Assembly (NCBI GenBank): GCA_938045545.1
Contig: CALIBN010000008.1
Span: 32,001 to 96,000 of the forward strand
Reading direction: 5' to 3'
DNA length: 64,000 nucleotides
Source of the DNA: an uncultured archaeon
Lineage (GTDB): Archaea > Thermoproteota > EX4484-205 > JAAOZP01
The notes beneath the pieces were generated by a model. That model worked only from the letters and a program-made list of their open reading frames with translations, made no database searches and had not been told where the DNA came from. How positions within the stretch are numbered: position 1 is the first letter of the stretch; each line of letters opens with the position of its first letter. This document shows, in pieces, positions 29,122 through 32,880 of the stretch. The translations under genes and the position numbers were made by a program.

Positions 29122-30210
29122 ATGAGGAGGTTTCTTAAACTCCCCACGGATCCGATTGACGTCAATCCGGATAAAAAGATTAGTCAGCTGACTGATGAAA
29201 TGCTGTTTACAGGTTTTCAGGGTAGGAAGGTTGCTGAGGTTGTTCAAGTATGGTCGAGAATGCTTAAGAAAAGGAATATCGTAATATGGTTCGGCTTGGC
29301 CGGCGCCATGGTTCCAGCCGGGATGAGGAGGCTAATCTCATACCTGATTGAAAGGAGAATGGTCGACGTGGTTGTCTCGACTGGCGCAAACCTTTACCAC
29401 GATCTTTTTGAAGCCCTAGGCGGGAAACATTATGTTGGAACCCACCTGGTAGATGATGTCAAGTTGAGGAGGGAGAGGGTTGACAGGATTTACGACGTTT
29501 TCGCAGACGAGAACAAGTTCTACGAGACTGATCTCTGGATAGAAAAGGTTTTCGCTAGGACGCTTAGGGACGATTACCCATATTCCTCCCGTGAATTACT
29601 CTATCTTCTCGGGAAGCTTTTAAGCAAGAATGCTAAGGATAAAGACTCCATTCTTGTAAGCGCCTACAGAAGCGGCGTCCCGATATTTTGCCCCGCGTTC
29701 GGAGACAGCTCCCTGGGTTTCTCAATAATGTTCTCTAACAGGAGGGAGAGGGTTACAAGCGTCAATGGGAAGAAGGTTGTCCTTAAGAAGAAGAGGATAA
29801 TCGTCGACTACCTAAAGGATGTCGACGAGAGCTCTAGAATAACTGAGAAAGCGAAGCAGACCGGGGTGATATACATAGGTGGAGGCGTGCCCAAGAATTT
29901 TATTCAACAAACTGCCGTGATAGCGAGCTACCAGACTAGGCACGACAGAAGCCATGGTTTTGCGATACAGATCTCCACGGACGTGCCGCAGTGGGGGGGC
30001 TTATCGGGATGCACGTTCGAGGAGGGTCAAAGCTGGGGGAAAATCGGGTTCCGAGCACAGAGGGTGCAGTGCTACGCTGACGCCACCATAGTGCTTCCTC
30101 TCGTAGTTCATTCTTTAAGCGAAAAGTTCAAGAGGCTTAGAAGAGACATCCCGATTTTCGAATGGAAGGGTAGTGATTTGAAGATAACTTATGAGAGGAT
30201 GAGGCTTTGA
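29122..30210 (+). CDS. dys: Deoxyhypusine synthase
   Basis: GFQG, AGAMVPAGMR, STGANLYHD, RIYDV, IGGGVPKN, GGLSGCTFEEGQSWGK, DATIVLP. Confidence 0.93.
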   Translation: MRRFLKLPTDPIDVNPDKKISQLTDEMLFTGFQGRKVAEVVQVWSRMLKKRNIVIWFGLAGAMVPAGMRRLISYLIERRMVDVVVSTGANLYHDLFEALGGKHYVGTHLVDDVKLRRERVDRIYDVFADENKFYETDLWIEKVFARTLRDDYPYSSRELLYLLGKLLSKNAKDKDSILVSAYRSGVPIFCPAFGDSSLGFSIMFSNRRERVTSVNGKKVVLKKKRIIVDYLKDVDESSRITEKAKQTGVIYIGGGVPKNFIQQTAVIASYQTRHDRSHGFAIQISTDVPQWGGLSGCTFEEGQSWGKIGFRAQRVQCYADATIVLPLVVHSLSEKFKRLRRDIPIFEWKGSDLKITYERMRL

Positions 30211-30212
30211 CA

Positions 30213-31613
30213 TTAGACGATAGCTTCCCCCCTTTCGGTTAGGGAATAATACTCTCTCTTCCTACCCATGATCCTCTTGGCCTCCACTCTTTTAACATAC
30301 CCTTTTTCAACGAGATCGGAAAGATGCTGGTAAACCGTTGGAATCCTCACGTTCATGCCGTATTTCTCCCTCAACCCTCTCCAAACTTCGTAGCCGTACA
30401 TGTTTTTTTCAGACAGCAGCCTCAGGATGGCTGTCTTAGTAGAACCAAGTCTAACACCTCCGCTCAACTCCTCTATCAACACGCCTAGGCTAGACTTACT
30501 GTAGGCTATTTCCTTCATAACCCTAGGATCCTTGAGGCCGCTTCCAGTTACGACGCAAACCACTTTGGCGTCTCTCCTCACCTCTCCGCTTTCAACCAGC
30601 TTCATCAAGCCTGCTAGAGGAAGGCTTCCAGCCGGTTCTGCAAGTATCCCTTCTTTCTCAGCCAGTAGGCTCAGGGCTTCAAATATCTCTTTTTCGCTGA
30701 CGGATACTGCTAGCCCATCCGTCTGTCTTATTGCTCTGAGGGCAGCGTTTCCGAACCTGGGATTGGCCACGTTCAGGTCGAATATTCTGCTTCTCGGCTC
30801 GGCTTCAGCCTCGACAGCATCGAAGCCTTTTTCAAAAGCCCTCACTATAGGCTTACAGTCCTCCGTCTGGACTCCGACTATTCCTACGCTGCCCCCAGCG
30901 ACGCCAAGCTCCCTCAGCTCTCTCATCATTTTATAGGTTGCGTAGACGAGGCCTCCCTCCCCCATTGGGAGGACCACGTAGTCAAGTGGGCTCCCACTGA
31001 GCTGCAGGAGTATTTCAAGCATGATTGTTTTCTTAGCCTCGTTTATCAACGGGTCGTGCTCCGCCGCGACGATAGTTCCCCTTGAGGCGCGTTTCCCGAA
31101 GGAGTTGACTACGCTAACCTCCGCACCATATATTATCATCTGGTAAAGTTTCCCAACGTCTATCGTGGGCTTAACCTGAACATGCGTCTTTAAACCGGCT
31201 TTAGAGGAGTATGCTGCCAGCGATGCGCCAAGGTTCCCGGTTGAATAGGTGGAGATCCTTCCGTAACCTAGACTTAGGGCAACCGACACGAATAAGGCTG
31301 AGCTCCTGTCCAAGTATGAGCCCGTTGGTTCAACGGTCTCATCCTTAATCCATAGCTCTTCAACACCTATGCTTCTCCCGATTCTTAAGCCGTGTTGGAG
31401 CATTGTGTATCCCTCTCCTAAGGAGACTCTGAACTTTTTCTCAACAGCCGGAAGTATTCCGCTGTGCCTCCAGATTCCGTGCTCTCCCGGCTCCTCTAAA
31501 AAGGATGGTTTCATCTCCAGCGTTAATCCCTGTCCACACTTTTCACACAGCTTTCTTTCAACGCTGAAACTGTAGGCTGCCCCGCAGCTCGTGCATCTGA
31601 GAGCATGATTCAA
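30213..31613 (-). CDS. Threonine-synthase-like (fold type II) domain lacking the PLP lysine, with N-terminal Zn ribbon, fused to a C-terminal PadR-type winged HTH
   Basis: CTSC..CEKC, VSLGEGYT, KDETVEPTGSYLDR (canonical NPTGSFKDR), STGNLGASLAAY, EGILAEPAG, TGSGLKD; C-terminal ILRLLSEKNMYGYEVWRGL..IPTVYQHLSDLVEKGYV..RKREYYSLTERG. Confidence 0.9.
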   Translation of the reverse strand: MNHALRCTSCGAAYSFSVERKLCEKCGQGLTLEMKPSFLEEPGEHGIWRHSGILPAVEKKFRVSLGEGYTMLQHGLRIGRSIGVEELWIKDETVEPTGSYLDRSSALFVSVALSLGYGRISTYSTGNLGASLAAYSSKAGLKTHVQVKPTIDVGKLYQMIIYGAEVSVVNSFGKRASRGTIVAAEHDPLINEAKKTIMLEILLQLSGSPLDYVVLPMGEGGLVYATYKMMRELRELGVAGGSVGIVGVQTEDCKPIVRAFEKGFDAVEAEAEPRSRIFDLNVANPRFGNAALRAIRQTDGLAVSVSEKEIFEALSLLAEKEGILAEPAGSLPLAGLMKLVESGEVRRDAKVVCVVTGSGLKDPRVMKEIAYSKSSLGVLIEELSGGVRLGSTKTAILRLLSEKNMYGYEVWRGLREKYGMNVRIPTVYQHLSDLVEKGYVKRVEAKRIMGRKREYYSLTERGEAIV

Positions 31614-31624
31614 GCTATGTTCAA

Positions 31625-31638
31625 CCCTATATATAGGG
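31625..31638. promoter_or_regulatory. Perfect 14-bp palindrome CCCTATATATAGGG, candidate operator
   Basis: Lies between a TATA-like run (about 31646-31655) and the start (31613) of the ThrC-like/PadR gene. Confidence 0.55.
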
Positions 31639-31809
31639 GGGTACTTATATATATTTCTCCGCGCTTTTAAGATGGTCGGTTTCCCGCAGAGGCCGCTGCA
31701 CTTGATTCTTGAGTAACCAAGGTATTGAACGCTTCCAAAAATCCCTTTTCAAGGCTGATCACAGTATCATAGTAATGTTTTATAGATAGTTCGGGAAAGA
31801 TGCCTAGGA

Positions 31810-32880
31810 ATGGCCAAGCTGGATTTAAGGATTCTCCTCCTGCTAGCAATACTTATTACAACGGTTTCCTGCATAAGCCTGCTTATGATGCAGCAGCCTG
31901 GGAGAAGGGTGTTGCAGGGAAACTCAAGCAGTATCGAAGAGTATTTCAAAACAGTTCCCCTGGAGAGATTGGAGGTTAAGTTCTTCGGGTGGGTTACGCC
32001 CGACGATGAAAGCGTTAACAGCTTCTTGACTAACGCCGGCAAGTTCACCTGGGTCTCTCCAACAGGTTCGGTAATAGATGCAAACGGAGTTTTTACTCAA
32101 AAAGTAGACAGCAGGGTTGTCGAGGCCGCTAGAAGGAGTAATGTTAGCATTGTTCCACTCGTGGCAAACTCCGGCTTCGACAGGAGTTTGGCTCACAGGA
32201 TCCTGACGGATCAGGATGTTAGAAGACGCACGATGGAAAGCATAGTTCGCTTCATCGTTGAGAACAATTTCTCAGGGGTTAACATAGATTTCGAGAATAT
32301 TCCTCCGGAGGATAGGGGAGCGTTGAACTCCTACATGAGGGAGCTGGCTTCAATCCTACATTCCCACGGTAAGATTGTCACGATAGATGTTTCAGGTAAA
32401 ACTTGGGACGACACCTCGGGTTGGGGCGGGGCATGGGACTATAGGGCCTTAGGAGAGATCTGCGACTATGTTTGCATAATGTGTTACGACTACCACTGGT
32501 CTGGAAGCGAAGCAGGCCCAATAGGACCGTTAGGCTGGCTCAGGCAGGTGGTTGAACACGCGCTTTCAACAATACCAAGGGAGAAGATAATAATCGGGAT
32601 TCCATTCTACGGTTACAGGTGGCTTGGTAGGAATGGTGTCGGCCTAACTTTCAAACAAGCATTGGAAACTGCTAAAAACGTTGATACGCAGGTTTTTCTT
32701 AGCGAGAAGGATGGTGAATACCACTATTCCTACGGATCGTACGAGGTTTGGTTCCAAGGCGCGAAGTCGGTTGAGCTTAAGGCTTCCACAGTGCTTTCAT
32801 ACGGGATAGACAAGATAGCTGCCTGGAGGGTTGGACAGGAGGATCCAAGAGTCTGGGAGGTTATAAGCAGGAAGCCTTAG
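31810..32880 (+). CDS. GH18 glycoside hydrolase (YaaH/chitinase-like), N-terminal membrane anchor
   Basis: FSGVNIDFE catalytic motif, IMCYDYH, AGPIGP, KIIIGIPFYGY, AWRVGQED. Confidence 0.92.
   Translation: MAKLDLRILLLLAILITTVSCISLLMMQQPGRRVLQGNSSSIEEYFKTVPLERLEVKFFGWVTPDDESVNSFLTNAGKFTWVSPTGSVIDANGVFTQKVDSRVVEAARRSNVSIVPLVANSGFDRSLAHRILTDQDVRRRTMESIVRFIVENNFSGVNIDFENIPPEDRGALNSYMRELASILHSHGKIVTIDVSGKTWDDTSGWGGAWDYRALGEICDYVCIMCYDYHWSGSEAGPIGPLGWLRQVVEHALSTIPREKIIIGIPFYGYRWLGRNGVGLTFKQALETAKNVDTQVFLSEKDGEYHYSYGSYEVWFQGAKSVELKASTVLSYGIDKIAAWRVGQEDPRVWEVISRKP

Follow-up and report, generated by a model that had tools for sequence, protein, structure and literature searches.

Bacterial pdxR genes often lie divergent from pdxST and are autoregulated; their product activates pdxST and represses its own divergent gene, and the title of one study reportedly attributes positive control of pdxST to PdxR. 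In Archaea, GfcR (phosphoribosyltransferase-like) and ThiR are further enzyme-derived regulators besides RbkR, which combines a riboflavin kinase with a winged helix-turn-helix (wHTH) domain. Characterized MocR-type factors bind pyridoxal phosphate (PLP) and control genes of PLP metabolism (PMC5320631), a PdxR-PdxKU locus for vitamin B6 salvage has been described in group A Streptococcus (PMC11619246), and RbkR controls vitamin synthesis and transport genes (PMC5397151). Here, we analyzed a gene at positions 30213-31613 of a 64,000-nucleotide stretch of DNA (the window) from an uncultured archaeon of the Thermoproteota (contig CALIBN010000008.1). The gene encodes a threonine synthase (ThrC) fold that lacks the catalytic lysine and is fused to a C-terminal PadR-type wHTH. 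We are confident that its product is a ligand-sensing pseudoenzyme transcription factor, and a B6 vitamer as its ligand, with a role in B6 homeostasis, is in our view rather probable. On balance, we favor a dimeric, B6-vitamer-sensing and autoregulated transcription factor that would resemble PdxR in function while standing outside the PdxR family.

Functionally, PdxR/MocR of Bacteria is the closest described system; it too joins a winged helix to a sensor derived from the fold of a PLP enzyme. The two also share a genomic link to vitamin B6 genes. In a one-genome-per-species scan with at least 600 pattern matches, 592 of which encode relatives, we analyzed the best 80 of the 592 loci and found pdxST next to the fusion gene in 5 of the 80 and the gene of an S component of the PdxU/HmpT Pfam family in 57; no pdxS or pdxT was found in the genome from which the window derives. 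The architecture is clearly different. MocR/PdxR proteins combine a GntR-type wHTH at the N-terminus with an aminotransferase domain of fold type I in which the PLP lysine is present. The fusion protein has an N-terminal Zn ribbon, a lysine-less ThrC domain of fold type II and, at the C-terminus, a PadR wHTH, and nearly all of its relatives are labeled archaeal. A Pfam search at E values up to 0.1 revealed no GntR-type wHTH in the fusion protein, and its sole wHTH is the C-terminal one of the PadR type. Judged from its sequence, the fusion protein is not a member of PdxR/MocR: wHTH type and position, PLP fold type and the lysine all differ. With RbkR it shares the origin of an archaeal one-component regulator from an enzyme fold; fold and vitamin are different, and RbkR is still an active enzyme, whereas the fusion protein lacks the catalytic residue. 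Likeness to the PadR regulators lies in a wHTH that scores above the Pfam cut-off and in a palindromic candidate operator in the gene's own promoter. Unlike in those regulators, however, the wHTH is C-terminal to a 390-residue enzyme-like module, through which dimerization is predicted.

The sequence-only reading of this DNA had proposed a regulator type not known to be characterized. In line with this, a search of the full-text literature (most subscription journals being outside its scope) yielded no account of a ThrC-PadR fusion or of a B6 regulator in Archaea. The portion of a comparative B6 study used here names only bacterial MocR-type PdxR and PdxR2 as regulators (PMC9997740), and the RbkR paper contains no mention of words beginning with pyridox, of vitamin B6, threonine synthase or PadR (PMC5397151). 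What is new here is most likely a B6-type sensor switch made from a lysine-less ThrC fold; the principle of a cofactor-fold sensor joined to a wHTH is already known.

The gene and its promoter comprise the following features, with coordinates given for the window:

30213..31613, minus strand: coding sequence of the fusion protein, 466 amino acids, TTG start, stop codon included (list of open reading frames).
31524..31601, minus strand: N-terminal Zn ribbon, residues about 5-30, with Cys7, Cys10, Cys23 and Cys26 (Cys conservation and weak Zn-ribbon Pfam matches).
30543..31427, minus strand: threonine-synthase-like fold-type-II PLP-fold domain, residues 63-357, the putative ligand-sensing and dimerizing module (Pfam PALP).
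31311..31313, minus strand: TTG codon of Leu101 at the position of the PLP Schiff-base lysine (alignments with solved ThrCs).
30429..30542, minus strand: linker, residues about 358-395, two helices modeled with lower confidence (predicted local distance difference test, pLDDT).
30222..30428, minus strand: PadR-type wHTH, residues 396-464 (Pfam PF03551).
31626..31637, no strand: candidate operator palindrome CCTATATATAGG, 12 bp, 12 nt upstream of the start codon (genome-unique, conserved position).
31644..31655, no strand: TATA-like element AATATATATAAG (minus-strand reading), 6 nt from the palindrome (conserved, fixed spacing).

The domain anatomy agrees with what had been read from the letters alone, namely a leucine in place of the Schiff-base lysine, retention of the STGN motif, the Zn ribbon and TGSGLKD, and an in-frame PadR-like wHTH at the C-terminus. 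The motif PTGSYLDR occupies residues 96-103, codon 101 starts 300 nt into the frame (31613-31313), and Leu101 aligns with the lysine of ptgsfkdr in four solved bacterial threonine synthases (phmmer, E 2e-39 to 4e-34). STGN was located at residues 124-127 and TGSGLKD at 356-362, and each of the four cysteines is conserved in at least 90% of 45 relatives. Pfam matched PALP to residues 63-357 (E 8e-56) and PadR (PF03551) to residues 396-464 with 50.8 bits at a cut-off of 27 (E 1.7e-13); solved PadR proteins were matched by sequence at 1e-6 to 3e-3. The recognition-helix stretch is conserved as well, with Y428 present in 194, Q429 in 185 and H430 in 192 of the 195 aligned rows flagged as fusions.

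To the question of how far the lysine loss extends, a homolog search gave 643 proteins at E values up to 1e-5. We analyzed the best 120 of the 643, all of which carry PALP and PadR (PF00291 and PF03551) and five of which are fragments. In the 115 homologs that cover the site, the lysine column holds Leu in 58, Ile in 26, Arg in 13, Met in 10, Phe in 5, and Thr, Ser and Val in one each. Because none of the 115 has a lysine, a sequencing error is excluded; a pseudogene was likewise rejected, as the leucine is common to independent assemblies and the structure model is confident. Among the matches listed, the nearest named homolog is a partial protein of 289 amino acids, 95% identical and labeled Candidatus Brockarchaeota, a lineage to which the DNA of the window may belong.

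A wider set of 203 sequences, including proteins from the 80 related loci, contained 195 flagged fusions, one of which is a true ThrC flagged by mistake. Here, the column holds Leu in 69, Arg in 50, Ile in 34, Lys in 14 (13 of them real fusions), Met in 14, Phe in 6, and a few others. A FastTree phylogeny of the enzyme-like domain (199 distinct sequences, with nine true ThrCs as outgroup) placed the fusions in a clade of their own, apart from the nine ThrCs, with a support of 0.86. Clade A, which holds the gene of the window, has neither Lys nor Arg in 126 of 126 members (support 0.84), and the gene falls into a subclade of 56 with exclusively Leu, Phe or Met (support 1.0). In the sister clade B (support 1.0), the column reads Arg in 50, Lys in 13 and Ser in one of 64 members. 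The expectation that the lysine loss is conserved in fusions of PALP and PadR thus holds for the close homologs and for clade A, but not for clade B: the loss is fixed in clade A and is not universal across the fusion family. As far as the alignments can tell, enzyme function has been lost in clade A and the loss is maintained by selection. The fusion event probably preceded the lysine loss, an order read from a small outgroup.

Comparison with genuine threonine synthases revealed which parts of the active site were kept. Fold-type-II enzymes cannot turn over substrate without the Schiff-base lysine. ThrC of the archaeal Zn-ribbon type and the fusion protein have in common the fold, the N-terminal Zn ribbon, STGN and TGxGLKD; the fusion protein differs in that it lacks the Schiff-base lysine and the NPxR arginine, has GEGGL for GNAGN, carries the additional wHTH, and misses all ThrC equivalog cut-offs (NF004170, 251.7 versus 421; NF006050, 217.3 versus 303; TIGR00260, 130.2 versus 167.1). 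In the 195 flagged fusion rows, Asp102 and Arg103 are each kept in all 195, Asn127 of STGN in 194, Gly218 and Gly220 of the GxGG loop in 194 each, and Thr356 of TGSGLKD in 192. In the Thermus thermophilus enzyme, these cofactor-side positions contact O3' of the pyridine as well as the phosphate and N1 of PLP. The substrate side has changed: NSVNPYR reads AEHDPLI, STGNT reads STGNL and GNAGN reads GEGGL, whereas nine of nine true ThrCs compared keep NSxNPxR, STGN-T and GNAGN. The column of the NPxR arginine holds Ile, Val, Phe, Leu, Ala or Ser in the fusions, its sole Arg belonging to the misflagged true ThrC. Presumably, the arginine of NSxNPxR, the threonine after STGN and the asparagine of GNAGN hold the phosphate of O-phosphohomoserine. 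With these roles, the cofactor site appears preserved and the substrate-phosphate site turned hydrophobic, which favors a B6 vitamer and disfavors O-phosphohomoserine as the ligand.

The genome (2.03 Mb, 51 contigs, 92% complete) holds six PALP genes. One of them, on contig C10 and adjoining a second open reading frame of 346 amino acids, encodes a normal ThrC with PTGSFKDR, NSVNPYR, GNAAN and an N-terminal CxxC...CxxC. This separate enzyme, the conserved lysine loss and the conserved promoter palindrome described below support the proposal of the sequence-only reading that the fusion is an enzyme-derived pseudoenzyme regulator. The ThrC-PadR architecture is already modeled in a database under an enzyme name: positions 2-437 of the 442 positions of NCBIfam NF004170 (PRK05638, 'threonine synthase') align to residues 5-465, wHTH tail included. 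The fusion protein differs from this model in its score, which is far below the cut-off, and the name implies catalysis that is not expected of lysine-less members. No protein in 14 model genomes exceeded the NF004170 cut-off. In public sources, the fusion proteins are named 'threonine synthase' or 'pyridoxal-phosphate dependent enzyme', and the former name is likely an over-annotation of enzyme function.

The palindrome CCTATATATAGG, which extends to a 14-bp form (CCCTATATATAGGG, 31625-31638), is rare and precisely placed. Its exact sequence occurs once in the 2.03-Mb genome, and the two copies with one mismatch both lie inside genes; the window contains one match versus 0.09 expected by chance. 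When the genome was scanned with a matrix built from 19 foreign sites, the top score (18.4) was that of the site in the regulator promoter. Across the 80 loci (1,183,673 bases), we found 23 matches with at most one mismatch, 17 of which lie within 120 nt upstream of the fusion gene's first Cys codon. The matches in L018 and L059, where gene calling failed, lie about 40 nt before the matched gene, so that 19 of the 23 are at fusion-gene promoters; the remaining four (L054, L065, L084 and L085) are elsewhere. All 19 promoter sites belong to lysine-less clade A loci or to L059, whose class was not called. Counted by clade, the site occurs in 17 of 28 clade A loci (18 of 28 with L018) and in none of the 50 clade B loci. 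In many fusion-gene promoters, ATATATAAG stands at a fixed short distance before CCTATATATAGG, and an alignment of seven promoters from different lineages showed invariant TATA-like and palindrome cores with fixed spacing in all seven. The TATA-like element can also be seen at the 19 promoter sites.

Judged from its distance to the start codons, AATATATATAAG is a probable TATA box. The center of an archaeal TATA box usually lies about 26 nt from the transcription start. We infer a transcription start near 31622, with the palindrome covering about -15 to -4, where archaeal repressors would block polymerase recruitment. The palindrome was also considered as the TATA box of the gene itself. Its center precedes the TTG by about 18 nt here, and the starts of relatives by 9-21 nt; we rejected this possibility because the element is too near the start and the conserved Cys7 and Cys10 leave no later start. 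A sigma-70 scan of 30000-32000 returned two promoter-like sites versus 1.4 expected and no terminators, but such a scan is uninformative for an archaeon. Five other genomes contain one to four near-matches of the palindrome each, similar to the control pattern. At the sites in G001, G003, G004, G006, G007 and G008, no B6 gene was found by tblastn; one genic site lies near a gene resembling that of aminoimidazole ribonucleotide (AIR) synthase. A second exact CCTATATATAGG is present in the Thorarchaeota genome G002 (C7:30894-33905, L088), about 200 nt ahead of a gene resembling TrpB2 (identified by eye from its similarity to an open reading frame of L006) and with no adjacent TATAAG.

The genome G009 connects the palindrome to B6 synthesis. 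Its regulator (L008) is 60% identical to the one in the window and has no palindrome in its own promoter. The sole exact CCTATATATAGG in this 1.7-Mb genome lies on another contig, where it is followed after 6 nt by the TATA-like box CTTATATAT; the pdxS ATG is about 30 nt from the center of CTTATATAT, and the encoded PdxS is 75% identical to that of locus L007. By its sequence, the G009 pdxS promoter is the same TATA-plus-palindrome module seen from the other side.

The gene neighborhoods of the relatives point to the same vitamin. Open reading frames were called in the 80 loci and clustered without prior labels. The loci are labeled Nitrososphaerota, Bathyarchaeia, Thorarchaeota and other Asgard, Aigarchaeota, Methanomethylicota, and Thermoplasmata; except for two bins labeled bacterial, all relatives are labeled archaeal. 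The commonest neighbor is a membrane protein of about 245 amino acids, an S component of the energy-coupling factor (ECF) type (PF07155), which is directly adjacent to the fusion gene in 55 of its 57 loci. The B6 carriers PdxU and PdxU2/HmpT belong to PF07155 (PMC9997740). Second comes an AIR-synthase-related protein (PF00586/PF02769), found in 27 of the 80 loci and, in L027, together with pdxST. The five pdxS-pdxT pairs are divergent from the fusion gene in L007, L059, L064 and L075 and downstream in L027; in L007 both genes were confirmed by Pfam (SOR_SNZ, 7e-102; SNO, 1e-52). Either the S component or pdxST is present in 62 of the 80 loci, and both together in none. By class of the fusion, the loci divide as follows:

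Clade A: 28 loci; S component in 17; pdxST adjacent in 2.
Arg class: 37 loci; S component in 32; pdxST adjacent in 1.
Lys class: 13 loci; S component in 8; pdxST adjacent in 0.
Fusion gene not called: 2 loci; S component in 0; pdxST adjacent in 2.

The list of ligands offered by the sequence-only reading (O-phosphohomoserine, threonine, cysteate-pathway intermediates or PLP) can thereby be narrowed. Vitamin B6 is favored by the neighborhood and by the pdxS-linked site, and O-phosphohomoserine is disfavored, the residues presumed to bind its phosphate having been replaced.

In the genome of the window, the regulator stands without pdxST. L007, the locus of the closest genomic relative (75% identical regulator), is collinear with the window on both sides: a deoxyhypusine synthase gene (29122-30210; Pfam DS) follows the regulator, and a glycosyl-hydrolase-18-like gene (31810-32880) lies upstream of it. 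Between the latter gene and the regulator, L007 contains genes for a transaldolase, a 420-amino-acid protein without Pfam match, pdxT and pdxS (L007:5876-9997). This segment of about 4.1 kb is absent from the window, where 196 nt separate the two genes (31614-31809) and the TATA-plus-palindrome module is retained. Neither PdxS (PF01680) nor PdxJ (PF03740) was found in the genome, and tblastn at E values up to 0.01 found neither PdxS nor PdxT; at 92% completeness, pdxS, pdxT and pdxJ are likely absent from the organism. An EcfT-type component (C11) and one kinase of the Phos_pyr_kin family (C6, 455-amino-acid frame) are present. Since PdxS, PdxT and PdxJ were not found while an S component, EcfT and the kinase are there, the organism is probably a vitamin B6 auxotroph that keeps importer and regulator. 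Loss of the segment here is favored over its insertion in L007 because divergent pdxST occurs in three distant lineages (L059, L064 and L075).

In this genome, the S-component gene (C2:104190-104918) is on a different contig from the regulator and converges with the AIR-synthase-like gene. Among solved proteins, its product has one relative only, 4HZU chain S (E 2.9e-9). This is HmpT, from which pyridoxamine was extracted as the substrate (PMC4860826). On these matches, the protein may be regarded as a candidate B6 carrier.

Structure prediction agrees with a sensor of the ThrC type that forms dimers. An AlphaFold2 model built from 45 relatives had a mean pLDDT of 88.2 and a predicted template-modeling (TM) score of 0.77, with pLDDT values of 54-60 in the linker (361-390). 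The top Foldseek matches are threonine synthases of B. subtilis, M. tuberculosis and A. aeolicus (target-normalized TM scores of 0.83-0.86). Homodimer prediction in the presence of PLP scored 0.90 (median of three runs) versus 0.00 for the best of three controls; at least 88% of the contacts were common to the runs, and partner pLDDT was at least 88. When the method was calibrated, 20 of 30 solved one-chain pairs attained this mark, compared with 1 of 23 solved single chains; the calibration holds only roughly here, as PLP was included and a custom alignment used. The predicted interface comprises residues 45-168, 315-324 and 358-384, that is, enzyme-like domain and linker, and does not involve the wHTH. 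PadR proteins typically have a C-terminal dimerization helix or coiled coil after the wing. No such element was found in the fusion protein, whose chain ends at residue 466 with a six-residue helix (460-465) past the wing. The predicted dimer and the palindromic site fit each other.

Taken together, these results suggest the following mechanism. The protein would act as a homodimeric one-component factor whose sensor is a dead ThrC fold with the cofactor pocket kept and both the Schiff-base lysine and the O-phosphohomoserine phosphate site gone. The pocket would bind a phosphorylated B6 vitamer, PLP or else pyridoxamine or pyridoxine phosphate, non-covalently, and its occupancy would alter the binding of the two C-terminal PadR wHTHs to CCTATATATAGG. 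Upstream of the regulator gene itself, the palindrome comes after the TATA-like box and ahead of the start codon; because this is a repressor position, autorepression is probable. Relatives have the same TATA-plus-palindrome module facing pdxS-pdxT or the gene of a PdxU/HmpT-type ECF S component. Seen from that side, the palindrome lies just upstream of the position of the transcription factor B recognition element (BRE) and TATA box, where either activation or repression could result. In the genome of the window, its own promoter would be the only strong site, since the pdxST segment is absent and no genes of de novo PLP synthesis were found; at most a weak candidate site precedes the unlinked S-component gene. 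More tentatively, and as a possibility we would not yet put at even chances, the lysine-less ThrC-PadR proteins may be the missing regulators of archaeal B6 homeostasis. Such proteins would sense PLP in its free form, or a different phosphorylated vitamer, by non-covalent binding in a pocket no longer able to capture it as a Schiff base, and control pdxST, a PdxU/HmpT-type importer and themselves through one module; the AIR-synthase-like gene would encode an unrecognized B6 salvage enzyme, and the window would show a regulator that survived the deletion of its target in a B6 auxotroph.

Several observations weigh against the B6 reading. A B6 regulon cannot be demonstrated in this organism because the S-component site is weak and pdxS is lacking: the S-component promoter scores 9.5 versus 18.4 for the regulator promoter, and that of the AIR-synthase-like gene -2.2. 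The palindrome itself resembles a TATA box, and ordinary TATA boxes are also found by the matrix; the other matches in the genome look like such boxes, for example that before a peroxiredoxin-like gene (named by eye). Ten of the 28 clade A loci have no upstream near-match. The roles of the pocket residues are carried over from threonine synthase, and the dimer score may reflect only the likeness to solved threonine synthase dimers. The outgroup is small (nine ThrCs) and support for the fusions and for clade A moderate (0.86 and 0.84), and sampling was uneven, as the best 120 of 643 proteins and the best 80 of 592 loci were used. Finally, ligand binding, DNA binding and loss of activity are deduced from sequence and models.

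These points leave room for other readings of the same protein. The pseudoenzyme regulator might sense a different cargo of the neighboring S component, such as riboflavin/FMN (flavin mononucleotide) or hydroxymethylpyrimidine, a precursor of thiamine. PF07155 takes its name from riboflavin transport, and the best NCBIfam match of the genome's own S component is of the riboflavin type (42 bits, below the cut-off of 99); three alignable conserved residues of HmpT, read by hand, are different here (Glu41 to Asp, His84 to Lys, Gln87 to Glu), and the AIR-synthase-like neighbor in 27 of the 80 loci resembles thiamine-phosphate kinase and HypE, below their cut-offs. HmpT was at first thought to carry hydroxymethylpyrimidine (PMC4860826). 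Such a cargo, however, fits poorly with pdxS-pdxT beside the fusion gene in five loci of different lineages, with the pdxS gene behind the only exact palindrome of G009, on another contig than the regulator, with a sensor that is a PLP fold with its cofactor-contact residues kept, and with a pyridoxamine carrier as the sole solved relative of the S component. We regard this reading as unlikely. Sensing of O-phosphohomoserine, homoserine or threonine, all of the threonine pathway, at the former substrate site, with amino-acid metabolism as the target, would be in keeping with the descent from ThrC and with the carboxylate-side STGN. It also draws on eight Bathyarchaeia loci of the sister clade (L032, L042, L047, L061, L063, L067, L068 and L070), in which a true ThrC (Lys, NPxR, GNAGN; 409-427 amino acids, no wHTH) lies near an Arg-class fusion, directly beside it and divergent in five and one open reading frame further in three; a threonine link may therefore exist in that clade, which counts against a B6 role there. 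The S-component gene is nevertheless present in all eight of these loci and directly downstream of the fusion gene in seven. For clade A, a role in threonine metabolism appears rather improbable, as the presumed phosphate residues are all replaced (Lys to Leu, Thr to Leu, NS to Ala/Glu, Arg to Ile, and the Asn residues of GNAGN to Glu/Leu), no threonine-pathway gene recurs beside clade A fusions, and the genome's thrC is on another contig and did not turn up in the site scans.

The dead enzyme domain might also bind no ligand and act as a dimerization scaffold for a PadR repressor that is constitutive or controlled otherwise. The predicted interface, formed by enzyme-like domain and linker and not by the wHTH, and the missing C-terminal PadR helix in a chain that ends at 466 would suit such a scaffold. 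Its use alone would leave unexplained, however, why about 190 fusions, some with an identity as low as roughly 35%, share pocket residues that are not part of the interface, and we give this explanation little credence. That the protein is still an enzyme, bifunctional like RbkR and using PLP without an internal aldimine or some other chemistry, is very improbable. The fold is intact and confidently modeled, and an active kinase that doubles as a regulator has a precedent in archaeal RbkR (PMC5397151). Against this stand the need for the Schiff-base lysine in fold-type-II turnover, the loss of the substrate-phosphate site, the scores below every ThrC equivalog cut-off and the true ThrC elsewhere in the genome.

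If the B6 reading is true, a gap in archaeal B6 regulation would be filled by an independent invention from a different PLP fold, present in at least 592 genome stretches. Because the fusions bear enzyme names, metabolic reconstructions may wrongly credit genomes with threonine synthesis. Clade B, with its lysine, arginine and serine variants, would offer a natural series for the evolution of a cofactor site into a cofactor sensor. With a predicted site of 12 bp and few candidate ligands, the hypothesis lends itself to standard assays.

Some further observations concern the S-component locus and clade B. The AIR-synthase-like gene (C2:103151-104200, plus strand; L101:3151-4200) encodes a protein of the PurM superfamily that scores below the HypE, ThiL and SelD cut-offs and is a candidate for an unrecognized vitamin-salvage enzyme. 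Directly upstream of the S-component gene (C2:104993-108048; L101:4993-8048) lies a metal transporter of the ATP-binding cassette type, with a zinc/manganese-type permease, an ATPase and a binding protein, all below equivalog cut-offs; a DtxR/MntR-like regulator gene follows it. The clade B fusions lack CCTATATATAGG, and several of them (L020, L024, L030, L033, L039 and L050) share another upstream motif, AACCGATAAAAG.

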